From NCBI RefSeq assembly GCF_963921235.1, contig NC_086097.1, positions 166,844,001-166,908,000 on the forward strand: a DNA stretch of 64,000 nucleotides, read 5' to 3'. This stretch comes from Mobula hypostoma. Lineage: Eukaryota. The notes under the pieces were generated by a model. That model was not told the DNA's origin, made no database searches, and worked only from the letters and a program-made list of their open reading frames with translations. The position numbers were made by a program, and so were the translations under genes. Below are positions 28,222-57,150 of the stretch, piece after piece. The number at the start of each line of letters is the position of its first letter. The stretch's first letter is position 1.

Positions 28222-28656
28222 AAGTGCTCATTTTGGTACCTCTTCAAGGTGTTTGGGGTTCAGCCTCCAGAATCCTTGCCAGGCCTGACACCCTTTGGGT
28301 GAAAATGATTCTTGAATTCTCTAATCTTGAACAGGATTTTGAAACTATATCTGTTGGGCCATGGACAGGCACTTCAATAGGCAAAGCACAAGGTCCCAAA
28401 GTGAACAATGGGCAGGACGTTGATTCCCAATCTACATCCTCAGCCCTTGCACTTCCTCTGCTCTGTACTCTGTTCTTCTTTTTACTACCTCGATGAAATT
28501 ACGTATGGCATGGTCCATCTGGATGACATACAAAACAAAAAGTTTTCCACTGTATTTCAGTACATGTGATAATAAGAAACCTATCCAATCAGGTGCAAGC
28601 CTAAACTCCTTTCTCAGATTCACATGGCCCTTAATTCCTTAATCTGCCGAAAATTT

Positions 28657-34500: not shown

Positions 34501-34607
34501 ATAGAGGGCTATGGGTAACCCTAGGTAATTTCTAAGGTAAGGACATGTTCGGCACAGCTTTGTGGGCCGAAGGGCCTGTATTGTGCTGTAGGTTTTCTAT
34601 GTTTCTA
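31565..34607 (+). mobile_element. CR1 LINE, near-complete ORF2 (APE endonuclease and RT) with an ORF1 remnant; frameshifted
   Basis: VAITESW, VVVGDFNFPHIHW, LDLVLGN, SDHNSI (endonuclease); NYRPVSLTSVV, YMDFSKAFDKVPH, GVSQGSVLGPLLF, FADDTK (RT); tail ttctatgtttcta; ORF1 piece VPLNNKY..LSTVG. Confidence 0.97.
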
Positions 34608-36659
34608 CTTAGCTTAGAGTGATGGGGCTGCAAACAAGACTGCTGATGGTGAAGTGATTGGGATTGGAAGAGCAAAGATTTCTCAGAGGACAAACAAATC
34701 AGGTGATGAATAGCGATGAAATGAATCCCAGAAGGTGGTAGGACAGGTAGATCAGGTGGTTAAAATCAAAATGACAAAACCTGAAACAAAAACCAAAAAT
34801 GATGGAAACACTAGAATGTCAGACTGGATCTATGGAAGGAGAAGCAGTGTTAACACACCCACTCTGCAACTTGCTTTCTTTCTTTCCAGTTCTGAACAAA
34901 GGCCTTTGCTCCAAAACATTAGTTCTGTTTTACAGTGGTTTGTAGAACAGACAAGATATGTGCTTTTAATGTAAGTGACATGGAATTCAAGAGCAGGGTG
35001 GATATACTAGAACTGAATACAGCATTAGTTAGGCCACAGCTGGCACATTGCATATACTTCTGGTCACCATATCACTGGAAAGTTCCAGTGACTCTAGAGA
35101 CAGTGTAGAGGAGATTTATGCAGGTGTTACCAGAAATTTTGAGTAAAATAGAGACTGAGGTCAGTAACAAGTTGCATTGATTTAAGTTAAATTGTCTGAA
35201 AATTTTAAAGAGGGAACTGAGGAAAATAATTCATTCACAGCAGTTCTCACCATATTTAATATAAACAGTGCCTGGATGAATAGTTGAAAACCCATAACCT
35301 TCAGGGCTGTGGGATAAGACCTAGGCAATGTGATTAAACCAAATTCCACCACTGACTGGCAGGGACCCAGAGGGCCAACTACTCATCCAGTCTCCATGTT
35401 TCTATAGTTCTGTGGCCATAGGGTTGGAAGGTGGTTCGAGATACAGTAAAGGTTTAAAAGGGAAAGTTGGCACCTGGATTGGCCTGCTCAAGGACTGGAC
35501 TGAAGGGCCCATTTCCATGTTGTATTACCCTGTGACTCTATGAGCAGAAGTGATGGAAGACTTTTCAAAATTCTGCTTAATTAGAAGCCAATATAACAAA
35601 CGGGGGGTTGTGGGTCAATGCAGATCAGGAAAAGGCAGCAAGATTTTGGATGAACTACAGTTTATGGAAAATAGAGGATGGACGGAACGTTGATCATGGC
35701 ACCGTTGGAAGAGTCAATTCCAGATGGGCATGATGGAGGTTTCTGCAGCAGAGGTAAGCAGGGACCAAGACATTGTGGTTCAGAAAACTGGACTCCACAG
35801 TAACCCCCTCAACAGACATGCATGGAATACTGTTTCAGCTGCAGTGGATAAGCAACACACCAATGCCAAACAAATTAGAAATAATGTCAGAAAAATATTC
35901 ACAGTAAGAAAGATCATCCAAAACAATGGACTCGGATAGGTTTAGTGGAGCCAAAAACAGTAATAAACAGCTGGATGCCATCCTAGGGATTTTTTTCTCA
36001 CATAAACTGAAGTATTTAATGAGCAATCGTCTGTTTTTCTTTGTTTTCTTAGTTGTATTCCCTTGTGCTCAATTTCTTTTTGTCTTCTCTTCTGTTTTTT
36101 CTTTCATACTTTGATCCTTTCTCTCCCTTTGTTCAAGTTTCAACAAATGTTCAGCCACTGTGTGAGTTCCTGCAACACTGACATTCCCATAAAGCAGAGA
36201 GCTTATGTTATAGTAAACATTCTCCCCGTAAAAAAAGTTGTGCACATGAGGCAAGAGTATTAGTAAATACTCCAGAAGTGACCAAAGTCTCCATTTCAAA
36301 GACTAATGCCTGTGGACTATAATTATTGTACTAGACAGAAGCAATAAAATTGTGTTGCACATCATCTTATTTTCTGGGGCACCATTTTATAGGCTAAATC
36401 TGAAAACTAAATTGTAACTTAGAAAGGAAGTGCATTAAATCAATTTTATATTTCAATTTTAATCACTAGAAATTTAAGCTTACACTGTTAAACGAGTTGC
36501 CTTTACTAAAACCTAACAGGGAATGGCAAAAACAATTCAAAATGCAAAAACATTTGATGCTCGAGACTTATACAACATAGAAAGTGTGCCCTCTAGTCCA
36601 TGAAATCTGTACCAACGTTAAATTAACACTATTTTATTCTCCACGCATTCCTATCTACT

Positions 36660-36780
36660 AGACAGATATATGGAGGAATTTAAGGTGGGGGCTTATATGG
36701 GAGGCAGGGTTTGAGGGTCGGCACAACATTGTGGGCCGAAGGGCCTGTACTGTGCTGTACTATTCTATGTTCTATGTTCT
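36660..36780 (+). mobile_element. CR1 extreme 3' end (5'-truncated)
   Basis: ggcacaacattgtgggccgaagggcctgtactgtgctgt-(ttctatg)n, the same tail as at 34550-34607. Confidence 0.85.
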
Positions 36781-36784
36781 CCTA

Positions 36785-36985
36785 AAAGATTCCACACTCA
36801 CCTGCACAGGAGGAGTATTTTGCAGTGGCCAATCTATCACCCCCTACATCTTTGGAACATGGAAGGAAACGAGAACACCCAGAGGAAACCCACACAGCCA
36901 CAGGAAGGACCTGCAGACTCCACACAGACAGCTTTGGAAGTCAGATTGAACCTAGGTCACTGAAGCTAGGAGGCAGCAGCTTCGT
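36785..36985 (-). mobile_element. V-SINE fragment
   Basis: Antisense V-domain acatctttggaacatggaaggaaacgagaacaccc..gcagactccacacagaca. Confidence 0.65.
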
Positions 36986-37789
36986 GTCAATGGCATGGGA
37001 AACACAACTTTGATTAAAGATGCTCCTCTTCACTTTCTATGTTACAACAATGAACACACTTCAGAAAGTAGTCCATAGGCCTTAAAGCACTCTGAGGCTT
37101 CTTAAGAGTATTTAATAAGTTCTATGCAAATGCAAGAATTTCTCTTTAGTGTAGGAAAAATAAGCATCATCCTTATACTGCAAGTCAGTCAATGTGGCAT
37201 TTATTGATGCTAAATAAGATGAAGTTCACACATTTAAACTTCCTTTAGAAATAGGATGTCTGTTACACTCACCCATTTCTAGACTCAATAATTACCTCGT
37301 GCATTTTTCGTTAGATGGCAGATGGAGATTTGTCATTGCAATGCTGCATTAGACTCTCCCAGCAGCATAGAATTTATTAATTTACACTTAAAGTAAAAAC
37401 AAAAAAATGTTACACTCAGCAGGATGAGCAGCATCAGTAGAAAGAGAAAAAGTTAATAAATGGTCATATACTTGACCATGAACTATTTCTCTTCCCACAG
37501 ATAGTCTGACTTGCTGCATGTTTCCAGCATTTCCTGTTTTTATTTCAGATTTTCTTCAGCCAGTTTTTTTTGTTTTTGTTTTGATTCTCATGTATAGATT
37601 TTCTTTAGACAAACTGAATTCTTTAACTCAATGAGTCAGCTGACACCAACCAAAATCTGCAGCGACAAGGAAGACAGCTTCAAGCAGCATCACAACTAAA
37701 CTGCAAATGTCACAGCTACTTCAAATGCATGCCTATTAACCATCAGCTTTTAATGCAACATATAAACAGGGGGCCAGCAATACAATAGC

Positions 37790-38066
37790 TTTATTTTATT
37801 ATTTATTTAGAGATACAGTGCACAGTGGGCCCTTCTGGCTCTTTGAGCCGCCCAGCCCCAGAAACCCCCTAGGCCAATCACAGGACAATTTACAATGACC
37901 AATTAGCCTACCAACTGATACGTCTTTGGAGTGTGGAAGGAAACCAGAGCACCTGGAGAAAACCCATGCATTCCACTGGGAGGATGCACAGACTCAGGAA
38001 AGAGCTCTGAACTCCGACACCTCAAGATGTAATAGTGTTGCTTTAACTGCTCCGCTACTGTGTTGC
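37790..38066 (-). mobile_element. tRNA-derived V-SINE (same family as 4456-4742)
   Basis: gacaatttacaatgaccaatta..cgtctttggagtgtggaaggaaaccagagcacc..ctgaactccga; (TAAA)n tail on the minus strand. Confidence 0.75.
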
Positions 38067-38150
38067 TTTGCAGCTCATGGGTTTTGAAAAGAAGGTTCTT
38101 TAAAGTCTCAGGAAACAGGATGTAGGGAAAGCAAAGAGAAAGAAAATTAC

Positions 38151-38313
38151 CAGTTCTTCACTCTGGAACTCTGGGTTGTACTGTGCCATGTCCTCTGTTG
38201 GTGGTTGCTGAACTAAACTTTTACAGACGAGCCATGTAGCCAAGCCAGCAACAAACATTCCAACATCTGGAGCAAAGAGTCTAATAATGTTCCCAGCATC
38301 TGCCCCACTCACA
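38151..38313 (-). CDS. PIEZO2: PIEZO2 coding exon, 163 bp (probably equivalent to human exon 5): (S)VSGADAGNIIRLFAPDVGMFVAGLATWLVCKSLVQQPPTEDMAQYNPEFQSEEL
   Basis: Peptide resembles recalled PIEZO2 LKGADAGNGIRVFVPDIGMFIASLTIWLLCRNIVQKPVTDEAAQSNPEFENEEL. Minus-strand acceptor ttcttcacag|T and donor CTG|gtaatt; ends in phase 0, matching the next exon. Confidence 0.95.
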
Positions 38314-39974
38314 CTGTGAAGAAAGAAGATATGCATCTTAAGTAAATATGAATATTTTTACTGTAACATAGCATTCTGGTTAGACATACTTGCATTTTAC
38401 ATAGAGCATTAAAACTTGGTTGAAAGTTTCTAGCAGTATAAAACTGGCAATACTGCTAATCTGGCACTAGATATAAAACTGAAACAATAGTTCCTGATCC
38501 AAGTAAAATGACCATAATCTTGATTACAAGCTTTCATCTAACACTCAAAAGCTTCATGAATCAGCTGGAATCCTTTTCTTTGAGGTACTTCCATCTGTTA
38601 TTTTTTCTAGAACCCCACACCAGACAGTATTCCCAACCAATATAGGGCAGTATTGCTAACCGATGGGCAAAGTGCACTGGCAGATTACAACCAAGCAGTA
38701 ACAACATTCCAATGTTCCTCTTGTTTTCCCAATGCCTTGCAGCAGCAGGTTACAGATGAGTATGGAACCATGTTGGGATTTCTGAGAATGTCCTACAAAA
38801 GGCCATTGAAATTCCAACATATTCCCTTCAGCACAAACCTGTTGGAAAGATACAAGTAGTTAATTGCAAACATGTTTGCACCAGACTATTCTAATAGTTC
38901 TTTGACTAGCTCGACCAAAAAAAAATCCTGCTTATTACTTAGTTGTTTGTGGGATCTTGGAGTATAGATGGCTGGCATTAGTGGCACGGCACGTAGTCTT
39001 ATGGGGAAAGGTTGACAAGGTGGACTTGAAGAGAATATTTTCTCTTGAGAAAGAACTGGAACAAGGGGTCAAAGTATACAAATATTTGGTCTCCTAAGTA
39101 AGAGAAGCAGCATTGTTTCACTCTGCAATAGAATCAAAGCCTTTGAATATATATCTTTGATAATCAAGAGGGTGAAAGATTACTAGATAGACAGGAATCA
39201 AGATTTGAGGTTACAGTTAGATCAGCCATGATCTTATTGAATAGAAAAGCAGGCTCAAGAGGCCAAGGGGCCATTTTGTATGTTCACATTACATATTTCT
39301 TTTATACCTTAGATTACAGCAGCAACTGTACTTAATCCATATGGTCCTTCACCAGCTATGAATTAGTTCTGAAGGGTCCAGAGGACATTAGGGTGTGGTA
39401 GAAATGGGAGTTGGCATCACATGTAGAAATAACAATGATATTCCAGGGACAGACACAAATTCTTCTTCATCATATTTTATTACTTAACTGATGCAAAGAA
39501 ATATCTGAACAAGGGGTGGAAGTAGAACACATTTTTTTTTAAATTTTGTATTTATTTATTCAAAAACAGTGCATTGGCTAACATAAGACATACAGCATAA
39601 AGAAACTACTGCCCACCCAGCTGATGCCCGTAGTTATACTGCTCGCTCCAGGTCTCTAGTCATTCTGCATCTACTCTATCAGTATAAAGCTCTGCTCCTT
39701 TCTCCTCATACCTTTGTCAAACATCTCCTTAAATATGTAAAGAATGCAATTATACAAGATATTTCCAATCTTAAGATGCCCCAAAGTACTACACAACCAA
39801 TGGTGTACTCTTTTGAGGGAAATCTAACATCTAATTTGCATGCAGCAGATAACCTTAACAGCCGCTCTGATAATGGCCAGCTAACCCATGTGCTTTAGTG
39901 ATTGCTAGAAAAGGAAAGGTAAATTGGAAAGAAACTAATATATGGCCTCAACTTGCAACAGATAAGAAACCAAT

Positions 39975-40730
39975 CATAAACATGAGAAATTCTGCAGGTG
40001 CTGGAAATCCAAAGTAACACACACAAAATGCTGGAGGAACTCAGCTGGTCAGACAGCATCCATGGAAACAAACAAACAGTTGACATTTTGGGCCGAGACC
40101 CTTCCTCAGCACTGGAAAGGAAGGGGGAAGATGCCAGAATAAAAAGGTTGGGGGAGGGAGGGGAAGGAGGACAAGCTAGAAGGTGGTGGGTGAAGCCAGG
40201 TGAGTAGGAAAGATAAAGGGCTGGAGAGTAAGGATAAATCACAAACACAAGAAAGTCTGCACATGCTGGAAATCCAAAGGAACACACACAAAATGCTGAA
40301 GGAACTCAGCAGGTCAGACAACATCCATGGAAAAGAGTGAACAATTGATATTTCGGCTGAGACCCTTCCTCAGCACTCAAGAAGGGTTTCATCCTGAAAT
40401 GTTGACGTTTGCTCTTCTCCATAACTGCTGCCTGACCTGCTGAGTTCCTCTACCATTCTGTGTGCGTTGCTTTGGAGAGGAAGTAATCTGATAGGAGAGG
40501 AGAGCGAACCATAGGAGAAAGGGATGGAGGAGGAGACTGAAGGAGTGATGATAGGCAGGTGAGAAGAGGTACGAGGCCAGAATGCAGAATGGAAGAAGTG
40601 GGGGAGGAGGGAGAAATTTTTTTTTACCTGAAGGAGAAATGTACATTCATGCCGTCGTTAGAGGCTACCCAGAAAGAATATAAGGTATTGCTCCTCCACC
40701 CTGAGGGTGGCCTCATCGTGGCACAAGAGC
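39975..40730 (-). mobile_element. Penelope-like 3' end interrupted by a nested fold-back pLTR element (40235-40472)
   Basis: Antisense GIY-YIG end at 40630-40730 and pLTR tail at 39975-40112. The nested insert is flanked by tggagagtaagga / tggagaggaagta. Confidence 0.8.
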
Positions 40731-42496
40731 AATAGTTTTGAACAATAACCCAGTGAGAGTACATTGCACGATTCAACTGACCCAACCCTCACAGGAGAAT
40801 GAGTGATGTTCTAAGTTAATATTTCATTCAGTCGCCAAGAGTGAATAGCATTTTCTTGAATATTCAATCATTATGTGAAATCAAGACCTTCACATATATA
40901 TTGCAAATGTTAATAAAGTGCTTGGTTTTAATACAGAAGTAAAAATCAACAGAGCTGGGAGATGAAGCATATTTTTTTTAAAGGAAACCAAAAGAGAACA
41001 AACTGCCCTTCACACTAAAAAGACGTATTCATTTCTCCATCTGTTTTGCAATGTGGACAAATATTGGCAAGATATCTTTCACCCTGTCTGCTGCAAACAC
41101 AGCAATAAAAATAGTATGAGTCATCCACAAACATTCACACAAGATTTCACAGTCCCGTCTGGATAAGATTTCCTTGAGCCCACAGAATAGCAGTGTTATG
41201 CTTAACTACTGAGTCTGCAAAAGAGCTGCACATAACAGTTATTGTGCACGAGCTCAGGCTCTGTTGTGCTTAACATATTCTGCTCCTATCGCCCATTCTC
41301 CAAGTGCTTCCCCATGGAGTGCTCTCCTCTCCACTGTTGCTAAATTGAAGTTATTCATGATGGTAATGGATAAGGAAATTATTGGCTGCTTATTCCCACA
41401 TGCATTTCCGAGTCATAGAGCAGCATTTCTGGCTAGATAAGGAATAGGGAGTATGTGTCATGGAAGCCCTTGAATTTTATATTTCAGTCATGACTAATAT
41501 CCAAACCATTGAAATGCATTCCAAGAAATAGAAAATATAGTTTTCAGGGAGGGTAAACTGAAAAGTTCAAGTTTAATTGTCATTTAACCATACAATGAAT
41601 GCAGTCAAACAAAACAGGTCTCCTCCAGGGCCAAGGTGTAAAACATAGTACCAACAATCAGACACAACATATACAGCACACACAGAACATATAGAAAATT
41701 AACACATCTAAAAAAATCCACAGTAAATCAAACTATTGTTTCATGATATGTTAAATTTTGGCTTTGCTTATCACCTGTTTTGAATTAGTGTAAATGGAGG
41801 AAATTCATGTGTTGAATTGGAGATGCAGCCATTATAAAACGTTGAACTGCATTTCATGGCAAGGGTCAAGAGAGAAGAGTAAAAAAAACTAAAGAAATTC
41901 ATCAAAGCACAATTGTGTGCAAAGCCAACTGGTGCCTAAGTTTGATTCCTGGCATTTGTTTCACATCTCAACTGTTGACTACTTCTAAGGTGAAGATTGA
42001 AATAGATACCCCTCATGGACTGAGTCTACATTCTCCAGTGAGCGTGGTCAGTTCACATCACAACATTGCCACTTTACTTGCGTGATTGACTCAGAACTTA
42101 CTAAGAAACAGAAAAACCTTTGTAAGACTTTGATTATATTTGCTGTTGTAGTACACAGCATGTAGAAATGGCAAATTTCCAGAATGCATTCAGTAAAAGT
42201 TCTCTGATGGGGGTAATCTTAATTTAGGACACCAAGTGGGAATCTTATTTGGTAAGACCATTTTGTGGCCTTGAACCACTGCAATCCTTCTGGTGAAAAC
42301 CTTCCATAGTGTCATTGAGTGAGGAGTTCCAGGATTCAGACCCAGCAATGATCAAGGATCAATGGTATAACTTCACGTCAGGATATGTAACAAGAACATT
42401 GAGGTTGCAGAGTTCCAATGATTCTGGATTGTGATGGAGGGAGAATCACAACGTCAATACCTTTTAATATCAAGGGTTGGCTCCACTGTTTGAGAT

Positions 42497-42965
42497 AACC
42501 ATATATAATCATATAACAATTACAGCACGGAAACGGGCCATCTCGGCCCTTCTAGTCCGTGCCGTACTCTTACCCTCACCTAGTCCCACCGACCTGCACT
42601 CAGCCCATAACCCTCCATTCCTTTCCTGTCTATATATCTATCCAATTTAACTTTAAACGACAACATCGAACCTGCCTCAACCACTTCTGCTGGAAGCTCG
42701 TTCCACACAGCTACCACTCTCTGAGTAAAGAAGTTCCTCCTCATGTTACCCCTAAACTTTTGCCCTTTAACTCTCAACCCATGCCCTCTTGTTTGAGTCT
42801 CCCCCACTCTCAATGGAAAAAGCTTATCCACGTCAACTCTATCTATCCCCCTTATAATTTTAAATACCTCTAGCAAGTCCCCCCTCAACCTTCTACACTC
42901 CAAAGAATAAAGACCCAACTTGTTCAACCTTTCTCTGTAACTTAGGTGATGAAACCCAGGTACTC
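42497..42965 (-). mobile_element. CR1 LINE 3' end (young)
   Basis: LNKLGLYSLECRRLRGDLLEVFKIIRGIDRVD..TRGHGLRV..FFTQRVVAVWNELP; (ATATGGTTAT)-type tail. Confidence 0.95.
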
Positions 42966-43106
42966 CAAAATCCTAGATAGTAATTGTTTAGCACTTTTGC
43001 GGCACAAGCATTACTTACCAATTATAATGAATTTTAGCAAGAAAGTGACTGTAACTTGCTAAGAAGTTGCAAATGGAACTGAACAACTGAACAATTGTTG
43101 AACATC

Positions 43107-43202
43107 AAGCAACACACATAAGAGTTGCTGGTGAACGCAGCAGGCCAGGCAGCATCTCGAGGAAGAGGTACAGTCGACATTTCGCGCTGAGACCCTTCGT
43201 CA
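43107..43202 (-). mobile_element. Approximately 96-bp mini element: hammerhead motif plus pLTR tail
   Basis: Flanked by direct repeat gaacatc (43100-43106, 43203-43209). Minus strand reads CTGACGA-A-GGGTCTCAGCGC-GAAATGTC-GACTG. Confidence 0.7.
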
Positions 43203-43559
43203 GAACATCTGCACTTCAAACCTTATGATGGACAAAACGTTATTGATGAAGCTACTGAAGGTAGTTTATCTTCATCCATAACTTGAGAAACTCCTGCAGA
43301 GATCTCCTGGGACCAGGATGATTTACCTATGACAACCATAGCCATCTTCCTTCGTGAAGAGTACAACTTTAATCATGGTAAAATTTCCTCCCTGATAGCT
43401 ATTTATTTCAGTTTTACTTTTCCATTATAGAAAATAAAAAGGTGAGAGGACAAGCTGTTTAAACAATTTAAATAATTCCTTGGGTTGACACAAAGTGACT
43501 AATTTTTTTGTAGACAAATCTCAAAGGTACAGTTGTGTGGATAATAGATTATTCAGCCC

Positions 43560-44705
43560 ACCACATTACATATATTGCTATTTTTTTTAACCCAAACACA
43601 GTAATCCCATTTGCCCATATTAGGACTATATTCAGTGCTGCCTTGACTATTTGTCAATTTATACGTCCCTTAAAGCAGTGATTACATCTGACTCCATCAC
43701 CTCCACAAATCAACTGCTCAGTGCAAATTTAAACGCAAACAACAGGAATTCTGCAGATGCTGGAAATTCAAGCAACATACATCAAAGTTGCTGGTGAACG
43801 CAGCAGGCCAAGCAGCATCTATAGGAAGAGGCGCAGTGAACGTCAACTGCGCCTCTTCCTATAGATGCTGCTTGGCCTGCTGCGTTCACCAGCAACTTTG
43901 ATGTATGTTGCTCAGTGTAAAACAATTTTTCCTCAGTTCCTCTTTCAAATTCCTTTCTCTCACCTTAAAACTATGTCCTCATATTCCTGATACCTCTTCC
44001 AAGGGTAAAAAAATTATTATGATCTACCTCACCTTTGCCTGTTATAATTTTATGCATCTTAGTCAAGTCGCCTCAAAGATTTTTTGCTCCAGGTACACAC
44101 TCTCTCTCTCTCTCTCTCTCTCTAAAAAGAGTTATTCATTCTAAGCTACATCCTAGTGAATCTCCTCTGCTTTCTCTCAAGCACAAACTTATCCTTCCTC
44201 TTGGGTGATGACCAGAATAAATGCAATACTCCATGTGCTTTAGCATAACTTCTCAACTTGTGTTGACATTTTCAAGTATTGATGAACTTGAACCCTAAGG
44301 TCACTCTATTCAACAACATTTCTTCATGTCTTACCATTCACTGCATAAGTCCTACCAATGTATTGTCTCATACTTATCAGGATTAATTTCCATCTGCCAA
44401 CACTCAGCCCAACTCATTTCAGCTTTAGACAACCTTCCACACTATCCACAACACTCCCAATTTTCATGTAATCCAATAATTTATTAATTGTACCTCCTAG
44501 GTTCATATCCAAATCATCAATATATACCACAAACAACAAGATCCAGCTTGATCCCTGTGGTATCCCAATGGTCACAAGCTTCCTATCAGTAAAACAATCT
44601 TCCACCACTATCCCATGTCTCCAAATTCTCAATCCAGCAGCTAACCTTGGATTCCATGTGCCTTAATCCTCTGGATTATCCAGTATGTAGTACCTTGTCA
44701 AGTCC
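43560..44705 (-). mobile_element. Old CR1 LINE 3' fragment (host of the 43731-43912 insert)
   Basis: Minus ORF VTIGIPQGSSWILLFVVYIDDLDMNL..KIGSVVDSVEGC. Confidence 0.8.
43731..43912. mobile_element. Fold-back Penelope pLTR element with perfect 67-bp arms
   Basis: Arm 43771-43837 is the reverse complement of 43846-43912; flanked by tgctcagtgcaaa / tgctcagtgtaaa. Confidence 0.9.
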
Positions 44706-44710
44706 CAAAT

Positions 44711-45827
44711 GACATCTCCCCCATTTCACGCACATCTGCTCTCACTCCATCCTCCCGCCACCCCACTAGGAATAGGGTTCCCCTTGTCCTCACCTACCAC
44801 CCCACCAGCCTCCGGGTCCAACATATTATTCTCCGTAACTTCCGCCACCTCCAACAGGATCCTACCACTAAGCACATCTTTCACTCCCCCTCTCTGCTTT
44901 CCGCAGGGATCACTCCCTACGCGACTCCCTTATCCATTTGTCTCCCCCATCCCTCCACACCGATCTCCCTCCTGGTGCTTATCCTTGTAAGCGGAACAAT
45001 TGCTACACATGCCCTTACACTTCCTCCCTTACCACCATTCAGGGCCCCAAACAGTCCTTCCAGGTGAGGCGACACTTCACCTGTGAGTCAGCTGGGGTGA
45101 TATACTGTGTTCGGTGTTCCCGATGTGGCCTTTTATATTTTGGCGAGACCCGACGCAGACTGGGAGATCGTTTCTCTGAACACCTACGCCCTGTCCACCA
45201 GAGAAAGCAGGATCTCCCAGTGGCCATAGTTTTTAATTCAACGTCCCATTCCCATTCTGATATGTCTATCCACGGCCTCCACTACTGTAAAGATGAAGCC
45301 ACACTCAGGTTGGAAGAACAACACCTTATATTCCGTCTGGGTAGCCTCCAACCTGATGGCATGAACATTGACTTCTCAAACTTCCGCTAATACCCCACCT
45401 CCCCCTCGTACCCCATCCGTCATTTATTTATATACACACATTCTTTTTCTGTCTGTCCTTTTTTTTTCCCTCTGTCCCTCTCACTATACCCCTTGCCCAT
45501 TCTCTGGGTTTCCCCCCTCCCCCTTTTCTTTCTCCCTAGGCCTCCTGTCCCATGATCCTCTCATATCCCTTTTGCCAATCAACTGTCCAGCTCTTGGCTC
45601 CATTCCTCCCCCTCCTGTCTTCTCCTATCATTTTGGATCTCCCCCTCCCCCTCCCACTTTCAAATCTCTTTCTAGCTCTTCTTTCAGTTAGTCCTGACGA
45701 AGGGTCTCGGCCCGAAACGTCGACAGTACCTCTTCCTAGAGATGCTGCCTGGCCTGCTGTGTTCACCAGCAACTTTGATGTGTGTGGCTTGAATTTCCGG
45801 CATCTGCAGATTTCCTTGTGTTTGCGT
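44711..45827 (+). mobile_element. Young Penelope-like element, 5'-truncated: intact GIY-YIG endonuclease domain and pseudo-LTR
   Basis: PGAYPCKRNNCYTC..FTCESAGVIYCVRCSRCGLLYFGETRRRLGDRFSEH..EEQHLIFRLGSLQPDGMNIDFSNFR* (ORF 44938-45390); hammerhead at 45691-45724. Confidence 0.95.
45691..45724 (+). ncRNA. Putative minimal type I hammerhead ribozyme (best-preserved core)
   Basis: GTC-CTGACGA-A-GGGT-CTCG-GCCC-GAAA-CG-TC-GAC. All core nucleotides are present, stem III is the palindrome ACGT, and predicted cleavage is after C45721. Confidence 0.75.
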
Positions 45828-46293
45828 ATACAATTAGAAGTGACATTTTTGATCCTTCGGTTAAATTTGAAGAGACCTGGAAGCCATTTATTCAACATTT
45901 TCATATGATGTTAAATTGACTTTTTCCGAATCCTTCTTATTAACTTAAAATATATGAATAGAGGAGTGGAGTTGACGATATTATTGAATGTATTCCATTC
46001 AAGATACTGGTCCAGCCTTGTTTTGTTCCATTTGCTTTCTTTTTGGGTTTGTATTTAGTTTTATTTTTTTGTTTTCTTTGGGGGGGAGGTTTCTTTGCAT
46101 TATTTTTTTCTTTTTATTTCTTTTTTCTTTATGATTAACTATATTAAGAGTTTGGAAGTCTATTACACCTGTATTATTTGAAGTCTTTTTGTACATGTTT
46201 ATCAACAATAAAATAATTCCAATCTCTGTATCAATATTGTTATTCTGTTTATAATTTTGGAAAATTAGTAAAAAGATTTAAAAAGAAAAGAAA
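45828..46293 (+). mobile_element. L1/Tx1-like LINE extreme 3' end
   Basis: IRSDIFDPSVKFEETWKPFIQHF resembles the fish L1 ORF2 terminal KF.K.W.PF motif; T-rich UTR and A-rich tail follow. Confidence 0.55.
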
Positions 46294-46299
46294 CCTCAC

Positions 46300-47330
46300 A
46301 TACTTTTCTTGACCTCATGCACAGATTACCCCACGGATCCCCAAAAAGACTAAATCTTTCCGTGACTACACACTTTCTTTGAGATACAGAACGTATTGGG
46401 ATTCACCTTACCCTTTCTTGCCAGTGATTTCTTTTTGCCCGCCTAATTTCTTTCTTCAATTCTCTCTATAGTCATAGAACATAGAACAGTACAGCATAGT
46501 TTAGGCCCTCCAGCCCAAAATGCTTTGCCGAACTGTTGCTAGTGCTGAACTAATCCTGTCAAAGGGATTCGGCCCAATACGTCAGCTGTACTCTCCATCA
46601 TTCTGTGTGTGTTGCTTGGATTTCCAGCACCTGGAGATTTTCTCTTGTTTTTGTTGTTAATTCCTCAATAGATGCCCTCAATCCCAGTTGCCTATCCCGG
46701 CCATGTCCTTCCTTTCCATCAAGCCTTCAATATCCTTTGTCATCCAAGGTTTGCTAACGTTGCCACCTTTGTCTATCATTTTGGCAGAAGAGCTCTCACC
46801 CGATTCTCCTTTAAAGGACTTCCAAATGTCTGTTGTCATTTTACCTGCAAGTATCTGTTATGAATCTACTTTCAACAGGCCCTCTCATGCTATAGAGTTC
46901 AGTCTTTCCCCAATTCAAGACAACTTGAGGACCAATTTATCCCTTTCCATAACCACCCTGAAGCTTACAGAATGAAAGTCACTGTTCCCAAAGCGTTCCC
47001 TCGCAGACACTTCATTTCCCAGTTTCACTGGGGAGTCAACATGCAAGAGTGTTGTCTAGCAACACACAGGTTGAGTACAGCCCATCTTCAGTGAGACTGT
47101 CTCAGAAAACTTCCTTGGAAGCAATTAGCAAATTCCAACTCATCTGAGTCCCTTGCACTATGGTAATACAAATCAATGTTGAGAAAGTTAACCTCCCCCA
47201 CCTACTATTGTAACCATATTGATGTTTCTACGATTTGCCTACATATCTGTTCCTCTAATTCACACCGACTGTTGGGGGCCTGTAGCACAATCCCAGTAAA
47301 GGGATTGCCACTCTTTTATTCCTCAATTGA
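46300..47330 (-). mobile_element. Highly decayed CR1 endonuclease/tether fragment with small inserts
   Basis: Antisense similarity to 32100-32900 (e.g. gagaaagttaacctccccc is the antisense of a GD.NF-type motif). Confidence 0.5.
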
Positions 47331-47369
47331 AGTCAGAGAGTTATGTAGCATTGACGGGTTGGTTTAATT

Positions 47370-47730
47370 ACCTTAGAAACTGCTGATCTCCTGAGTTTTT
47401 CACGTACAGCCGTCTCTAGCATCAGAGAATCGCATGACAAACACCACACATCAAGTGAGCAGCAGTTCTGTTGTTGAAAATGCCTTGTTAATGAGAGAGG
47501 TCAAAGGAGAATAGCCAGACTTCCTGTCAGGTTGAATGGTCAGAATGGCCATTCAATGTGACAGGAAGGTGACAGTAACTGAAACATCCATGCGAAAGAG
47601 CATCTCTGAACACACAACACATTGAATCCTGAAGTGGCTGGGCTACAGAAGAAGACCATGAACATACAATACAGTCAGTGGCCACATTATTAGGTACCTC
47701 CTGTGCCTAATGAAGTGGCTACTGAGTGTA
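47370..47730. mobile_element. Tc1/mariner-derived non-autonomous fragment
   Basis: End cagtggccacattattaggtac...gtgcctaatgaagtggctactgagtg-ta resembles a CACTCAGTGGCCACTTTATTAGGTAC Tc1-type TIR followed by TA. Confidence 0.55.
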
Positions 47731-48582
47731 TAATTTCCTCAACTTGCACTCGTGTTATGTTTACTTTTGTTTATTTTCTTTTGTAAATTGTGTTTAATAT
47801 ATATTTGCTTGAGATTGTGATTTACATTTGTCATGTTTGTAACGTGCTCAGCTGTTGCTGCAAAAAACTAATTCTTATGGCAAAAACTGTGTACATTCAC
47901 CTTGTCTATGCCCCTCAATTTTACATACCTTTCTAAATCACCCTTTGACATTGATTAGTCCAAGTTAAATTCCACAGCTGCTACAAGGGGATTCAATGGC
48001 TACGAGATACAAGTCCAATATTTTGCCATTGCATCCTTGTTGGGGCTACACTCATGGGAAAAGATTTTTAAAAAATCCCACAAGTCTGTAGACAACTCAG
48101 TGACATAGTCACCTGCCGACCCGTTGTACTGAGCTTGAATGGGAGGCAAATAACTGGACTGTGTTCTGCCCAGTGACCTCTTTGTTTTCTACCTGTCTCT
48201 GCAAAAGACTCTATACAGGAAAAAACAATTCAGCAGAAAACATGGGAAACTGATCAAAGCATGCTGAGGGTCTTCTTAATAACAATTAACTTTACAATTA
48301 TCTTTTCCCCTAACAGGTTAATAATTATCAACTGCTACTGTGCGTCGCCCAGTTTTTAACTCTAACTTTCTGCTCCTTTTGTTTCTACAGTTATAAAAGC
48401 CAAATTCAGTTTGGAACCATAACATCATAGCCCCGTACAACATAGCAATAGGCCTTTTGGCCCATTCAGACCAAGATATTCTGTATATTCAAGTTAATTC
48501 TATTTTCCAGCACTTGATCCGTAGGCCTCTAAACTCTTGTCATTTATATATCTGTCCATATAGTTCGTAACTGTATCTAATA

Positions 48583-49111
48583 CAGACAACCCACCCTGCA
48601 AACACTCATTTCAGGGAGGTAGCACCATCAATTTGCGGGAGACTTCCGGGAGAGGTGGGATGTCTGCAATAGAGTAGCTCCTTAGCAGCTAGCCAGCTAG
48701 TTTAAATAACGTTAGCTATGTTAATGAACGAATGACAGCTGTAAAACTCATCTCAACACGTCTTTTACAGTCTTAACCCACCATGGGCAATAGAAAAGTC
48801 ATTGTTGCAAACAGTGCAGCGAGCAACACTGTCATTATTTTGACCCATTAGGCGGGGGTACACCTTACTGTAGTCTGGGGTGACGTACGTTTTATATATT
48901 TTTTTGGAACACTCTGCCATGGCGTGCTCTCTCTCTCTCTCGTGGTTGCTCTCTCTCGCTCGCGTGCTCTTGCTTGCTTGTGCTCTTGCTTTCTCTCGCT
49001 CGCTCTCAAAAAAATTGATTTCCGTGATATTGTATATAATTTGTGGGCATCAGGGAGCCACTATTAATATGCGGGAGACTTCCGGAACTTCTGGGAGAGG
49101 TGGGATGTGTG
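48583..49111 (-). mobile_element. Non-autonomous TIR DNA transposon, second copy of 11328-11920
   Basis: CAGACAACCCACC...GGTGGGATGTGTG termini; perfect 6-bp TSD ctaata (48577-48582, 49112-49117). Confidence 0.88.
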
Positions 49112-49629
49112 CTAATATACCTGACTCAACCACTTCCACTCTCTGCTGGTTTATGAGCTAACACAGCAGCAATTTTCACTATTTTATTCAGTTTAAAATG
49201 AATGTTGTCAATACTTGAAAAGATAGGAAAGAAATCTGGCACTTATAGCTCCTCCAGAAAGAGACTCCGTATTTTTGTTCTCCAGATATGCAGATAATGA
49301 TTTGAAGATGAGTTTTCTGCGGATTTGAACTCATTGGGAAAGAGAAATCAGTAATATAAAATCTTGCAATGGACAAAGAAAACTCCTAGCCTACAGGTAA
49401 CTACAGCATGCCTGAATCTCCTCAAGCTTTCACCCACCTCGTCAGTCTTTGAATCCAAACACATCTTGGCTCTGTGCTCACAATAAAGGGCCTTATACAT
49501 GAATTTCCTGCAATAAAGTTGGTTCAAAACAGATGTAAAACTTTAAAAGTTCAGCAAAAAATGAAGTAATGTTTTATGGTACAGTATTTCAATATGACTT
49601 AATTTGCGCTATTTTAAGGTTAAGTCACA

Positions 49630-52600
49630 AAAGAACTAGAAGTAAGATGAGGAGATAGATTTCTGCCGAATGAGAGTATTGCCTGGATGGGGAGAGGGGA
49701 GAAGGGAGAGGGGGAGGGGGGAGGGGAGAGGGGGGGGGAGGAGGGGGGGAGGGAAGGGGGAGAGGGGAGAGGGGAGAGGGGAGAGGAGGGGAGAGAGGGC
49801 GGGAGAGAGAGCGGGGGAGAGAGGGGGGGAGAGAGAGGCCATTCCCCTCAATAATAAGTATATCACATTGGATACTGTTGGGAGTATGGGGGGTGGGGGA
49901 GTGGAGCCACAGCAACCATGAGTCTGGCACTGACACTGGCTCTATGGCTCAGAAGGGAAGTGTGGAGAAGTGGAGTAGTAGGGGATTCCATAGTTAGAGG
50001 AGCAGATAGAAGATTCAGCTGACATGAAAAAGAAACCTAGTGCCAGGGTCAGGGATGTCTCAGGTCAGGTCCATTGCATTCTAAAAGGAGAGGGGTGGAC
50101 AGTTGGAAGTCATAGTACATCTTGGTAACAACGACACAGGTAGGAAGAGGGATGAGGGCCTGAAGAGAAAATATAGAGAGATAGGGAGAAAGCTGAAAAG
50201 CAGGACCTCCAGGGTAGTCATCTCCAGATCACTACCTGCCTGTGCCACTTGTCAGTGAGAGAAAGAACTGATAATTTGGCAGATGAATGTGTGGCTGATG
50301 AATTCACGCAGGGGGCAGAATTCAGATTTCTGGATCATTGAGATCGCTTCTGGGGAAGGTACAGCCTGTACAAAAAAGACGGGTTACACCTGAACCCGAA
50401 GGGGAACAATATCTTTGCAGGCAGGATTGCTAGAGCTGTTGGGGAGGGTTAAAATAATTTGGCAGGAGGATGGGAACTGGAGGGATAGGGTGAAGGATAG
50501 GGCAGTCAGTGTACGAGTAGATGGAATTTGCAGTGAGATTGTGAGGAAGGATAGGCAGATGATAAGGAAAAATTACAGTCAGTGGGATGAATTGAAGTGT
50601 AACATGGGAGCAAAATTAAAAAAGGTGATGTATACAGGACTGAAATGGTTACATTCGAATGCATGCAGAGTATGGAATAAGGTAGATGATCTTGCAACAC
50701 TGTTAGAGAATGGCAGGTACAATGTTGTGGGCATCACTGAGTCGTGGCTGAAAGAAAATCATAGTTTGGAACTTAACATCCAAGGATACACATTGTATAG
50801 AAAGAACAGGCAGGTAGGCAGAGGCGATGGGATGGCTCTGGTGGCATAGAATGAAATCAAATCCTCACAAAGAGGTGACATAGGATAGGAAATTGTAGAA
50901 TCCTTGTGGGTGGAGTTAAAAAACTGCAAGGGTAGAAAGACCCTGATGGAAGTTATATACAAGCCTCCAAATAGTAGCCAGGACCTGGGATACAAATTAT
51001 GATGGGAGATAGAACAGGCCTGTAAAAAGGGCAAGATTATAATAGTGATGCGGGATTTCAGTATGTGGGTAGATCGGGAGAATCAGGATGATGCGGGATC
51101 TTAAGAGAGGGAATTTGTAGAATGCTTACAAGATGGGTGCTTAAAGAAACATATGGTTGAGTCCACTACGGGAGAGGCAATTCAGGATTGAGTGTTGTGT
51201 AATGGACCAGATTTGATTGGGGAGTTTAGGAGAAAAGAACCCTAGACGGCCGTGATCATAGTATGATAGAATTCATCCTGCAGTTTGAGAGGGAGAACAT
51301 CAAGTCAGATGTGTAAGTATTACAGCAGAGTAAAGGGAATTACAAAAGCATGAGAGAAGCTGGCCAAAGTTGATTGGAACTGGACACTAGCAGGAATGAC
51401 AGTAGAACAGCAATGGCTGGTGTTTATGGGGAATTCAAAAAGCTCAGGATAGATACATCTCAAAGTTGAAGAAGTATTCTAAAGGGTGGATGAGGCAACA
51501 GTGGCTGACAAGGAAAGTCAAAAACACCATAAAAGGAAAAGGGACGGCAGCTAGTAGAGCTAAACTTTATGACAAGTTGGAGGATTGGAAAGCTTTTAAA
51601 AACCAGCAGAAGGCAACCAAAAAGCCATAAGAAAAGAAAAGACAAAATATGAAGGTAAGCTAGCCAATAATATAAAGGAGGATTCCAAAATATTTTTCAG
51701 CTATATAAAGAGTAAAATAGAGGCTAGGGTTGATATTGGACCACTGGAAAATGTGCTGGAGAGGTAGTAAAGGGGAACAAAGAAATGGCAGATGAACTTA
51801 ATAAGTGTTTTGTGTCTTTCTTCACAGTGGCGGACACTAGTAGTATGCAAAAAATTCAAGAGTGTCAGTGATCAGAAGTGAGGGTATTTGCTATTTACTA
51901 AGGAGAAGGTGCTTGGGAAGCTGGAATCTCTGAAGGTGGATAAGTCATTTGGACCAGATAGACTATTCCCTAGGGTTCAATTCTATTAATAAGGGATGAA
52001 GTTTCAGGGTGCTTGGAAGCATTTGATAAAATAGACCGAAGTCAGTATAGTTTCCTTTAGAGAGAATCTTGCCTGACAAATCCATTGGAGTTTTCTGCAG
52101 AAATAAAAGGCAGAAAAGGCAAAAGAGACTCAGTGGATGTTCTTTACTTGGATTCTCAGAAGACCTTTGACAAAATACTACACATGAGGTTGCTTAACAA
52201 GATAAGAGCCCATGGTATTACAGAAAATATACTAGAATTGATAGAAGATTGGCTGACTGGCAGGAGGCAAATTGTGGGAATATAGGGGGCCTTTCCTCAT
52301 TAGCTGCCCGTGACTAGTGGTGTCCGAGTTGGCAACCACTTCTTTTCATTTATTTCTCAATGACTTGGATGCCAGAATTTACAGCTTTGTGGCTAAACCA
52401 AGTCTGCAGATTCTAAGAGATGGGTGGGGGCAGTGTCGAAGAAGGGATTCTGCTGAAGGACTTAGATTGGGAGAATGGGCAGATGGAATACAGTGTAGGG
52501 AAGCATACGGCCATACAGTTCTGTAGAATTAAAGCATAGATCATTTTCTAAATGGAAGAAAAATTAAAAAATCATAGGTGCAAAGGGACTTGGGAATCCT

Positions 52601-53212
52601 TGTGCAGGATTCCTTAACTTGCGTATTGAGCTGGGTGGTAATGAAGACAATTGCGATGTTGGCATTCTTTTTGAGAGGACAAGAATATATTATGCTGAGG
52701 CGTTATAAGGCTTAGGTCAGCCAGCACACGGAGTATTGTGTGCAGTTTTGGGCCCCTTATCTATGAAAGGGATTGCTGGCATTAGCGAGGGTCCAGAGGA
52801 TGTTCAGGAGAGTGATTCCAGGAAAGAAATGGTTAACAAAGAGAAGCATCTGCTGGCTCTGGGCTTGTACTCACTGGGGTTTAGGAGAATGAGGGGGGAA
52901 TCTCATTGACACCTATCAGTTCTTGAATGACCTAAATAAAGTGGATGTGTGGAGATGTTTCCTATAATGCGCAAGTTTTAGTCAGAAGATGGTGAATCTG
53001 TGGAACTTGTGACACAGATGGCAGTGAAGTCCAAATTACTGAGTGTATCTAAACAGAGGCATTTAGGTTTTTTATAAGTCAGAGCGTCAAATGTTATGGG
53101 GAAAAGGCAGGAGAATGGGATTGAAAGGGACAGTAAATCAGTCATGATGGAATTGCGGACCAACTCGATGGGCTGAATAGTCTAATTCTACTCCTACGTC
53201 TTATGGTCTTAT
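49630..53212 (+). mobile_element. CR1 LINE, decayed near full-length (ORF1 esterase region, ORF2, 3' UTR)
   Basis: IPLNNKYITLDTVG, VVGDSIVRGADRRF and DGLHLN (SGNH ORF1); VGITESWL, VDVLYLDSQKTFDKILH (ORF2); tail cttatggtcttat. Confidence 0.93.
49689..49837 (+). repeat. G-rich polypurine low-complexity tract inside CR1 ORF1
   Basis: About 150 bp almost exclusively G/A, with many G3-G7 runs. Confidence 0.9.
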
Positions 53213-54144
53213 TATCTGTGTGGATGGCAAGCAAACAAAAGCTTTTCATTTTATCTTGGTATGTTAACAATAATAAACTAATAATAACTACAAAAGAAAT
53301 ATTGCAAATGCGGGAAGTTTGAAATAAACACAGAAAGTGCTGTAAATACTCAACTGATCAGGTGGCATCTGTGGGGATACAACAATTTAGTTCATCAGAA
53401 GTCAGAATAATTAAAGATAAATAGCATTTAAGATGGAGAGGAAAGTTTGGAAATGGTGGAATGACCGAGGCAGGGAACTAAAGAGTGGTCTGAGGTGATG
53501 AAAGGCAGGAAGGGCAAAATGATGGAGTGATGGGCAGTACAAGATGAAAATGCAGAATTATTACCTGAATTTACCAAAGGAAGTTGAAAGGAATGCTGCA
53601 TATCCAGAGTGAAAAGGATGTACTGATGATTATCTTAAATTGATGTAGAGTTTAGAAGGCAGAAATAAGCCAAGTAAAACTCAGAAGATGCTGGAATAAT
53701 ATTAAGTTGTCCTGATACTTCTGTTTCTATCTTTAAATATAATACTTTGCCTATCCATAGTATTTTCTTGATCAATCTAAATTCTAATATCATTATAAAT
53801 TTAATATCCTTGCTATGGGCTGTGCCCAAATTTACACATTAAGTGCCAGGTCAGCACAGAAATGGGACTTTCAGCCCAAGTTGATCTGACTATCCATTTC
53901 ACTGCTTACCCTATTTGCCTGCATTAGGGCCATATTCCAGTATTCCTTTCCTATCTGAGCACCTGTCTATTTCAGTGCTCTAGTTACATCTCCATCTTCA
54001 ACCTCCTCTGGATGCTCATTGGAAATGAACATCATTGAAAAGCCCCTTCCTGAGATTTCCTTCACATCTGGTACACGTGGCAATCAAAGTCTCAACAAAT
54101 TATGCAGCAGGGGAAAGAAGCTGTTAAGTTTATCAGGTTTTAGT

Positions 54145-55187
54145 ACGCTGGAGGAACTCAGCAGGTCGGGCAGCATCAGTGGAAATGATGAGTCTACGTT
54201 TCAGGTCGGATCCCTTCGTCAGGACTGAAGAATGAAGGAGACTGGTCTTTCAACCGAACCTACAAGCATTCTTCAAGGATTTGAAGAATGCTTGTAGGTT
54301 CGGTTGAAAGACCAGTAATTTGAAAGGCAAAGGGGTGGGGGAGGGGAAGCATCGACATCATGGGCAGGAAAACAATGGGTAGTAGAAGGAGGTGGAACCA
54401 TGAGGTAGGTTATAGGCAGCTGGGGGAGGGGGCAGAGTGAAATAGGAATAGAGGAATGGAAGGGGAGGGAATTACCAGAAGTTGAAGAATTCTATGTTCA
54501 TACCAAGGGGCTGGAGACTCCCTGGACGGTATATGAGGTGTTGCTCCTCCAACCTGAGTTTAGCTTAGTTAACTCTTTGATTCCTTCAACACCTTTGCAT
54601 TGACAACAAGCTTCCATTTCTTGTTTACCTTCACCAAACCCACTAACTCACTGCTAGATTTACTTGGTTCTCCGCATTTGAATGTCCATCTGCTATAATA
54701 TTTATATGTCAGTGAAATCTTTCAACATCCCCCTCTCTTAGTTAACCTTCTCCACTCAGGTTGAAGGAGCAAAACCTCACATACTGTCTAGGTAGTCTCT
54801 AGCCCCTTGGTATGAATATAGAATTCTCCAACTTCCGGTAATTCCCTCCCCCTCCCTTCCTCTATCCCTATTTCACTCTGCCCCCTCCCCCAGCTGCCTA
54901 TAATTTACCTCATGGTTCTGCCTCCTTCTTCTACTACCCATTGTTTTCCTGCCCATGATGTCAATGCTTCCCCTCCCCCACCCCTTTGTCTTTCAAATTA
55001 CTGGTCTTTCAACCAAACCTACAAGCATTCTTCAAATCCTTTCCCCTCCTTCATTCTTCAGTCCTGACGAAGGGTTCCGGCCCAAAACGTCGACTTATCA
55101 TTTCCAATGATGCTGCCCGGCCTGCTGAGTTCCTCCAGTGTACTGTAAGTGTTGCTTTGATCCCAGCATCTGCAGATTATTTTGTGT
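54145..55187. mobile_element. Large fold-back Penelope insertion: inverted GIY-YIG-end/pLTR arms around captured host DNA
   Basis: TSD ttaagtttatcaggttttagt (54124-54144, 55188-55208); minus arm 54145-~54560; plus arm ~54755-55187; hammerhead-like motifs at about 54191-54227 (-) and 55059-55095 (+). Confidence 0.92.
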
Positions 55188-56069
55188 TTAAGTTTATCAG
55201 GTTTTAGTTCTTTCAATTTTCCCATCACTTACATCTAATCTTCTACCCCAGTTTGTCTATGACATCAAAATGTTCTTGGATCTTCTCTGATCTCACACCT
55301 ACAGGAATTTAGCATGTTTTAATGTCTGAACTCACATTTACAGGAATTCAACATTTCAACTCTTTGATTCCTTCAACACCTTTGCATTGACAGCAAGCTT
55401 CCATTTCTTGTTTACCTTCGCCAAACCCACTAACTGACTGCTAGATTTACTTGGCTCTCCGCATTTGAATGTCCATCTGCTATAATATTTATATGTCAGT
55501 GAAATCTTTCAACATCCCCCTCTCTGTTTGCCAAACCCTGTACGTTTGTTAAATCTATTACTCACCTCATCTTTCACCCCGCAATGTAAATCATATTCAA
55601 AGGTCTTTATTTCATTGTTGGTTTCTTAAAATATCTCATACCTGCTTGCTCAGATCAATTACACTGAAATATAGTTTTAAAGTATTTGCAGATATATGGT
55701 TGAAAGCAAATAAATCACACTTTGGCAATGCATCAGAGGTGAGATGTCTTTCACTTAAGCAGCCAACTTTTTAACTACTAAGCTAAATTGATGGTGTTTC
55801 ATGGCAGCAAACCATCAGGAACTGGAAATGGTGTGAAACTCACCACAGATTTTCTTTGGAAATTTAATTGAAACAAATTTTTAATAACTTTTTGCTAAAT
55901 ATTGGCATTATTTTCTGTGATTTCCATCTATATTCATCAAACTAAGAAGGAGACATAAACCAGGCAAACAGGCCCTTTAGCCCAGTGAGTCCATGACAAT
56001 CATTAACCACCTATTTACACTAATCTTACGTTAATCACTTTTATGTTCTCCTCATATTCTCATCAGCTA

Positions 56070-56300
56070 ACCCCAAATTCTACAAACCAGCTGTAGCACA
56101 GGGCGAATTTACAGTGACTAATCAACCTAACAATTTGCACATCTTTGGGAGGAGGGGGGAGAAAAGAAAGTATTAGAGGGAAACCCATATAGTCACAGGG
56201 AGAAAGTGCAAACTCCACCCGGACAGCACCAGAGGAAAGAATTAAACACAGCTCTCTGAGGCTGTGAGGCTGCAGTTCTACTTGTTGGTGGCACAGTGCC
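56070..56300 (-). mobile_element. V-SINE fragment
   Basis: gcacatctttgggagg..ggaaacccatatagtcacagggagaaagtgcaaactcca. Confidence 0.65.
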
Positions 56301-57150
56301 GGCAGCGCAGGAAAATGGAACACCTTCCCACTGTGGGAACTAACATTGGATATGCACAAAATCATGCAACAAATTTTAGGTGTTAATAAATGAAGCTGAT
56401 TGAGTTGCTGCAATGAGATTTTTTTTATTATTAATGTGCTGTACTTGGAGTTCAGTTTCCCTTCAAATGCTCCAAATTTTATGTTAGAGGATAGATAAGA
56501 TGCAATGTTAAAGGGAAAAAATATTTGTGCAGGTTGGAAGATTTTGGGACTTAAGACTTTAGATTACTGCCTGGAAGCAACAGATGATAGAAAAGCTTTG
56601 TAAAACTGTTCCTGCTGAAGGATCTCAGCCCGAAATGTCAACTGTACTCTTTTCCATAGATGTTGCTGAGTTCCTCCAGCATTTTGTGTGTATTGCTTGG
56701 ATTTCCAGCATCCGCAGATTTTTTCTTGTTTTTAGAAACCGTTCCTGTTTGCTGGGGCATCTGCCCTGTCCTGGAATTGTTATGCCTCAGGGAGCACTCA
56801 TGCTTTGATGATGCATGTTGAGAAAATTAAGAAGTTAAAGTGTCAGGCATCTTCTGATAGGTCCACTTAAGATTGCCTGGTGCAGGATGCAAATAACCAG
56901 ACTGGACAAAGAGAGTCTCCCGAGCTAGCTGGTGACTGAGTTCACAAACAAAGTGTCACTTTAGCATAATAAATATAGTTTACATTGTGGCAAAAAAGCC
57001 AAATGGTAAAATTGCTGTAGAAATCCAAACAGATACTGGAACCAATCAATAAGGATTCATGTCAAAGAAACATCATAACACAGTAATAAGGGAGAGGCAT
57101 TCTGTTGTGTATTTAGTATTTCAGTAATATTTGAGTAATATTGTAAATAT

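Follow-up and report, generated by a model that had tools for sequence, protein, structure and literature searches.

A minimal hammerhead motif on a truncated, Neptune-like Penelope element copy in a PIEZO2 intron of Mobula hypostoma

The closest described systems are hammerhead-bearing Penelope-like elements (PLEs). Minimal hammerheads (min-HHR) have been described for Xena, Poseidon and Neptune elements in fishes, and minimal Penelope hammerheads show no cleavage as monomers and low cleavage as dimers (PMC4209133). The hammerhead of PAc, a Poseidon element of the green anole, cut only in the presence of protein (Frangieh et al. 2024, PMC11167929), and retrozymes have been reported in one cartilaginous fish (PMC7229834; bioRxiv 10.64898/2026.07.22.740005). 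What the hammerhead does in Penelope elements is described as still unclear (PMC8557442). The stretch of DNA analysed here, a window of 64,000 nucleotides, contains such a motif on a truncated copy of a Neptune-like Penelope element. We consider it probable that the hammerhead serves the element's own RNA and that the template for copying is mostly uncut RNA.

Anatomy of the focal hammerhead and its element

PIEZO2 runs through the window on the minus strand, with an exon match at E 4e-34 to PIEZO2 against 1e-18 to PIEZO1. The focal copy lies in the PIEZO2 intron 5' of the exon match at 38193-38387 and, since the gene is on the minus strand, is antisense to the PIEZO2 pre-mRNA. The genome (G000) holds three Piezo-family genes (C1:166.8-167.1 Mb, C2:226.1 Mb and C55:46.5-46.6 Mb). 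The features concerned are as follows:

7163..7453, minus strand: PIEZO2 exon match (others at 4859-5056 and 38193-38387)
44713..45827, plus strand: 5'-truncated copy, young subfamily of a putatively Neptune-like Penelope element, ~1.1 kb of the 3.5-kb unit
44872..45390, plus strand: open frame remnant with cysteine linker and GIY-YIG endonuclease end
45391..45688, plus strand: pyrimidine-rich pseudo-LTR (3' UTR), 3' end TTTCAGTTAG
45689-45726, plus strand: minimal type I hammerhead motif, C3 = 45694
45691-93, plus strand: hammerhead strand GTC, then core CTGACGA at 45694-45700
45701, plus strand: extra A between CTGACGA and stem II
45702-45713, plus strand: stem II GGGT/GCCC with loop CTCG
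45714-17, plus strand: core GAAA, then CG, TC
45722-24, plus strand: closing GAC; predicted cut after C45721
45727..45827, plus strand: 3' tail; its end, at +106 from the cut, is the longer of the two 3' ends known in the family
45740-47 and 45798-805, plus strand: 3' tail arms AGATGCTG and CGGCATCT

The sequence and parts of the hammerhead at 45691-45724, with the predicted cut after C45721, are as given in a preliminary description of this DNA, and its identification there as a minimal type I hammerhead in a Penelope pseudo-LTR is borne out by core, stems and element context, which all agree. The motif has the core CUGANGA / GAAA / UH, the extra base after A9, the G10.1-C11.1 pair and the loopless palindromic helix III of metazoan PLE minimal hammerheads, and in full elements (L185, L186, L182) it is found in both pseudo-LTRs. 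All testable features of this class are present, self-cleavage itself being a prediction. The focal stem I has one mismatch (GACAG against GACTG in the family), and the tail arm at 45798-805 is CGGCATCT, not CAGCATCT. Rfam, proposed there as a check, returned 19 matches with E up to 10, none of them to a hammerhead family. As a monomer, the motif is predicted to fold as a hairpin pairing GACG with CGUC and spanning about -33..+5 from the cut (-11.8 kcal/mol, against -3.6 kcal/mol for the hammerhead frame; energy models describe hammerhead cores poorly). The GIY-YIG remnant at 44872-45390 matches Pfam PF01541 at E 4e-4, below the cut-off, and lies 300 nt 5' of the hammerhead. TTTCAGTTAG, at the pseudo-LTR end, is the start point of most short family copies. 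No target duplication was detected for the focal copy (44713..45827).

Directly before stem I, all subfamilies carry a pyrimidine tract with a CAG end (45677-45690), which resembles an initiator and a 3' splice site alike; in D. virilis, an intron ends at the corresponding place (PMC4209133). At 45741-45791, the young subfamily has a 16-codon frame whose ATG lies 20 nt past the cut; in the older subfamily the frame from that ATG runs into the main frame, as read from cluster lines. The 3' tail had also been thought to fold, which was not upheld, its predicted fold being no better than shuffles (z -0.35 to +1.26). An alignment of 14 tail copies gave 10 pairs at -5.7 kcal/mol, two of them with two-sided change in one sequence each, which is weak support. 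Outer and inner tail arms are kept across subfamilies, with changes mostly one-sided. Both 3' ends come after a similar GTGTT(T)GC word, and by analogy with PAc the tail may act as a start signal of the element protein.

The full unit measures 3.5 kb and consists of pseudo-LTR, hammerhead and tail, followed by a 1,043-codon RT/GIY-YIG frame that is open from +58 past the cut and has its first ATG at +139. Its best-preserved forms are found at the following loci:

L185:2867-5995, minus strand: unbroken 1,043-codon frame between two hammerheads
L186:4455-7562, minus strand: unbroken 1,036-codon frame between two hammerheads
L182:1453-9453: tandem array of three hammerheads at 3,510-nt spacing, with an inverted 5' piece

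As the L185 and L186 frames are unbroken, the family has probably been active recently. The array, which is near-identical in its repeats, takes in L182:1453-9453 and L181:8663-10000 (G000:C40:573.6-584.5 kb), and both of its units share a frameshift before the RT. Together, the intact frames and the three-motif array offer natural constructs for a cleavage test. The element protein has RT and GIY-YIG matches in a single frame, the GIY-YIG being C-terminal and both Pfam scores below cut-off. Between RT and endonuclease lies a CX4CX2C linker (residues 910-918), which conforms to the CX2-5CxxC linker of Neptune/Nematis elements, and the partial tandems, inverted 5' copy and one-sided tail of those elements are all found here. 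The nearest named homologue, from the bamboo shark, is 71% identical. The family is accordingly designated Neptune-like on a putative basis, that of the linker motif rather than a tree including named elements. Related elements at L270, L274, L279 and L282 carry hammerheads with a 6-bp stem II and four-base helix III palindromes (AATT, AGCT).

Four subfamily groups in the genome, with mean identities of 93%, 90%, 81% and 70%, all keep the core. The expectation that the core would be better conserved than its flanks stood against distant relatives but not within the genome, where the upstream pseudo-LTR differs and the 3' tail is mostly conserved about as well as the core; because the tail is also kept, within-genome conservation alone fails to single out the core. 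Eighty metagenome loci with related proteins yielded 18 descriptor matches, against one in reversed sequence. Most of the 18 adjoin an end of the frame and their flanks are unrelated, the compared elements being only 35-55% alike in protein. Nine hand-picked motifs of equal length (four from this genome, five of the 18 metagenome matches) align without gaps and with an invariant core. In this alignment 88.9% of cells pair, against 19-47% in slid controls, a percentage inflated because the motifs were picked by a descriptor demanding pairing. The covariation anticipated for the stems was found as compensatory change in stems I and II, with 15 cells changed on both sides across the nine motifs and none of 500 shuffles as high. 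The real evidence for the fold lies in its fixed place beside the frame and its varied pair types.

Copy number and intron placement

A search profile built on 30 genomic copies and refined once gave 27 family pieces in the 64-kb window (1 per 2.4 kb), 9 above the earlier list, all 17 copies of which were recovered on the strands given there. Besides the focal copy, these comprise:

23206..23339, plus strand: older-subfamily piece, palindrome changed to AUAU; apart from the focal copy, the sole piece in the window whose core and stems are both intact
43094..43208, minus strand: short young copy in sense to PIEZO2, beginning at the upstream edge of the ribozyme; all core letters kept, stems damaged
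43726..43912, no single strand: two short young copies meeting head-to-head in the ACGT palindrome, one with a long and one with a short tail
57149..57392, no single strand: head-to-head pair of young copies, short and long tail, 12-13-bp target duplication
Older pieces (20 within 690..56730), first ten: 769(-), 1291, 3497, 6379(-), 6994(-), 6996, 9683, 11133(-), 11155, 25407
Older pieces, other ten: 28127, 37477, 40114(-), 40381(-), 40369, 46548, 53379(-), 54232(-), 55055, 56610

As had been described, few cores are intact: 7 of the 27 window pieces have all 11 core letters, and two (45694 and 23213) also have stems I-III. The head-to-head pair at 43726..43912 has a 12-13-bp target duplication and lacks a full core, and the minus piece of the pair at 57149..57392 has an intact core with a stem II mismatch. 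A candidate microRNA at 43797-43888 was rejected, the Rfam matches being sub-threshold and produced by the head-to-head hairpin. With a loose core pattern, the window yields 19 matches where 7.7 would be expected, and none of 100 shuffles yielded as many. The window also contains longer older-subfamily copies of the same Penelope family (27193-28230, 13287-14033, 22729-23339 and 54146-55196), 64-81% like the young one, the last of which is a head-to-head pair. Among other repeats are a broken LINE at 32088-34010, which matches endonuclease and RT, two other LINE-like frames (26439-26834 and 42580-42972), and a 67-bp palindrome at 47667-47733 with a sub-threshold microRNA match and a similar word in L058 near 6620. 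This palindrome presumably represents the ends of a small DNA transposon.

The surmise of a very large motif population holds for the genome (3.48 Gb), where one exact 34-mer occurs 6,605 times and its control not at all. In 1.594 Mb of intronic DNA, the introns of PIEZO2 and three teneurin genes, there are 404 pieces (1 per 3.9 kb), 81 core-intact and 35 fully intact. If the sampled introns are typical of the genome, this extrapolates to ~0.88 million pieces and ~76,000 fully intact motifs; the first 1.264 Mb contains three exact 34-mers, against 2.4 expected from the genome count. Reversed sequence gave no profile matches, against 324 in real sequence, and the structure descriptor scan proposed earlier likewise gave 43 real matches and none in reversed sequence, so the matches are not due to chance.

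Sense and antisense pieces are about equally frequent in these introns (201/203 for all pieces, 38/43 with intact core, 17/18 fully intact), in a test that covers four genes and has limited power for the fully intact copies (sense share interval 0.31-0.66). Were intact motifs to cut pre-mRNA, sense copies would be rare, and they are not; this suggests that in the four genes intact sense copies are tolerated in introns without harm to host transcripts. A special tie to PIEZO2 is not supported, given the equal density and absence of strand bias in the three teneurin genes. These data also bear on the idea that the host adopted the ribozyme to regulate PIEZO2 RNA. One intact motif does lie in a PIEZO2 intron, and conserved intronic hammerheads of amniotes are mentioned in PMC7229834, but the focal copy is young (about 91% like its sisters), has a mismatched stem I and shares its density with the teneurin introns. 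It is also antisense to the pre-mRNA, whereas a host-adopted intronic hammerhead lies in sense. Adoption is therefore highly improbable.

Insertion ends and the template RNA

Statistics on insertion ends rest on the 1.594-Mb sample, in which 221 matches included 96 young pieces, 76 of them tail-bearing and off locus edges. The 3' ends are bimodal, falling at +58..+78 or +100..+117 (about +66 and +102 from the cut) in 71 of the 76. Head-to-head pairs combine one short and one long tail in 19 of 20 cases, one of the 19 running past +200, and repeats of 11-17 matches flank 38 of the 54 insertions examined but none of 54 controls. By analogy with PAc, ends and duplications fit a scheme in which the element protein would start reverse transcription at two internal sites and prime on both target strands.

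The 5' ends of the same 76 pieces lie at -45..-1 in 42 cases, at 0..+2 in two and further 3' in four. Among solo copies, 14 of 31 end at -45..-28, the ribozyme's upstream edge and not the cut, a rate of 0.029 per nt against about 0.001 elsewhere (~30x). The scarcity of starts 3' of the cut is no detection artefact, since test pieces planted with a start at +1..+30 were recovered in 31-40 of 40 trials. Many of 98 older copies also start at the motif edge, as judged by eye without a formal count. Full-length copies reach 5' to -127, -396 and -905, and some templates must therefore read through the edge. At 6 of 7 variable sites, short copies carry the same variants as long ones and carry them about as often, and variants are linked across the edge (mean r2 0.40 across, 0.43-0.46 within). 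As 5' ends avoid the cut and variants stay linked across the edge, it is likely that the copies come from RNA intact at the cut site, with uncut RNA as the main template.

Under the 2014 proposal, efficient cleavage in the cell would instead release unit-length or circular RNA as the real template, with the stumps as by-products (PMC4209133). That the core and compensated stems are retained between elements whose proteins are only 35-55% alike argues for selection on a catalytic fold, tandem arrays put two motifs on one transcript, and a circle would let copying pass through the cut site. A circle, however, leaves the ends at -45..-28 unexplained, only 2 of 76 young pieces start at 0..+2, and intact sense copies are tolerated in introns; in the anole element, moreover, mutating the ribozyme does not abolish insertion in vitro, and the accessible account has no reads with ends at the cut (PMC11167929). 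Release by cleavage is thus an unlikely source of the template, though the missing copies of cut RNA could reflect its destruction rather than rare cutting.

If most copies derive from uncut RNA, the 5' end of this template, whether made by initiation or by release, probably lies 28-45 nt upstream of the cut, and such RNA would give rise to a mass of 100-150-bp stumps. The ribozyme alone is predicted to be silent as a closed hairpin, and to cut only as a dimer or with protein help, on tandem transcripts; the dispersed stumps would be decaying passengers.

More tentatively, the transcript itself may start at the hammerhead's upstream edge, with internally primed reverse transcription running off its 5' end to leave about a million stumps of 100-150 bp. 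The genome would in that case be a fossil record in which the PLE hammerhead is dispensable for making the insertion template and harmless in host pre-mRNA, and its role would be directly testable. No cap mark was seen as a consistent extra G at 24 solo junctions, of which only ~8 have a clear duplication, and the solo ends are ragged over about 18 nt; a capped start at -35 is therefore a candidate only. The same ragged ends without a cap G would be expected if the pile-up at -45..-28 were not an RNA 5' end but a hot spot of RT drop-off or joining, where the ribozyme hairpin gives way to the pyrimidine tract. The motif does fold as one hairpin (about -33..+5), and roughly half of the solo copies run on past the edge, across which variants are linked. 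A block would, however, be expected at the hairpin's 3' foot (+5), yet just 1 of 31 solo copies ends at +1..+30, and the edge sequence TCAGTT is one that we take to resemble the initiator consensus. Drop-off, too, is a possibility to be held with some doubt.

Several other routes to these ends were rejected. A splice model, which puts a 3' splice site like that of D. virilis at the 5' ends, would predict a shared upstream exon, of which there is none, and where the duplication is clear it mostly abuts the element. Strand transfer between RNAs at -35 is contradicted by variants staying linked across the edge in 49 long copies. For one-strand A-to-G scars, a single 1,977-nt piece passed the filter, and its 9 versus 4 of 64 changes are not convincing. 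As to expression, contigs from four sequencing runs of presumed type cover the stretch, and none of the 15 joints listed, out of 203, has GT..AG ends; such contigs are incapable of showing transcript starts or ends and speak neither for nor against expression.

The short copies could also be an independent non-autonomous element, a SINE or retrozyme, amplifying from its own masters. Short pieces outnumber long ones (42 versus 24) and carry their own target duplications, and a 2026 preprint derives retrozymes from pseudo-LTRs (bioRxiv 10.64898/2026.07.22.740005). At L194:249-638, two short young copies stand head-to-tail with an inverted third, the only retrozyme-like arrangement among the 76 pieces. 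Against this, variants are common to short and long copies at 6 of 7 sites, 5' ends are heterogeneous and no arrays of short units beyond that pair occur among the 76, which makes independent amplification quite improbable. The focal copy, being single, likewise lacks the head-to-tail array of a non-LTR retrozyme.

Comparison with described systems

The motif class, described in 2014, and the insertion anatomy are already published, and the finding itself is therefore ordinary. No publication on this family or on 5' end clustering was found in the accessible literature. With the min-HHR of metazoan PLEs (Cervera and de la Pena 2014, PMC4209133), the motif shares the type I core, the extra base between 9 and 10.1, G10.1-C11.1, the loopless palindromic 15.2-16.2, the short helix I, the place in the pseudo-LTR, and the occurrence in thousands of copies, scattered singly or closely paired on opposite strands. 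The accessible text of that report names no shark or ray and, unlike the present work, contains no analysis of end positions or intron strand. Copy numbers given there, ~4,000 in the coelacanth and 9,000 in Xenopus, are lower than those found here, with 6,605 exact 34-mers and ~76,000 fully intact motifs by extrapolation.

The EN+ PLEs of the Neptune/Nematis group (Craig et al. 2021, PMC8557442) have the same order of RT and C-terminal GIY-YIG, the same cysteine linker, and the same partial tandems, inverted 5' copy and 30-40-bp tail on one side; the clear 11-17-bp target duplications seen here are a difference from the accessible account of them. Non-LTR retrozymes (PMC7229834; bioRxiv 10.64898/2026.07.22.740005) are likewise small, abundant type I hammerhead repeats related to pseudo-LTRs. 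They form head-to-tail arrays, for the most part with canonical hammerheads, and their depletion in introns has been reported, whereas the pieces described here show no strand bias and are stumps that lie dispersed or head-to-head.

PAc is the closest counterpart in insertion behaviour (PMC11167929). It also has two internal RT start sites that yield two 3' ends, extends both target strands, uses uncut RNA as its main template and carries its hammerhead at the pseudo-LTR/ORF junction. It belongs to a different clade, Poseidon, with no cysteine linker reported in the accessible text, and its ORF starts inside the hammerhead rather than opening at +58 with a first ATG at +139. The work on PAc is biochemical, that on the present family sequence-based. 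The useful part of the present analysis is its scale and the in-genome statistics that bear on the role of the PLE hammerhead: insertion ends avoid the cut, introns appear to tolerate intact sense copies, and both start sites are in use in head-to-head pairs. Such counts agree with the sole in vitro study, done in another clade (PMC11167929).
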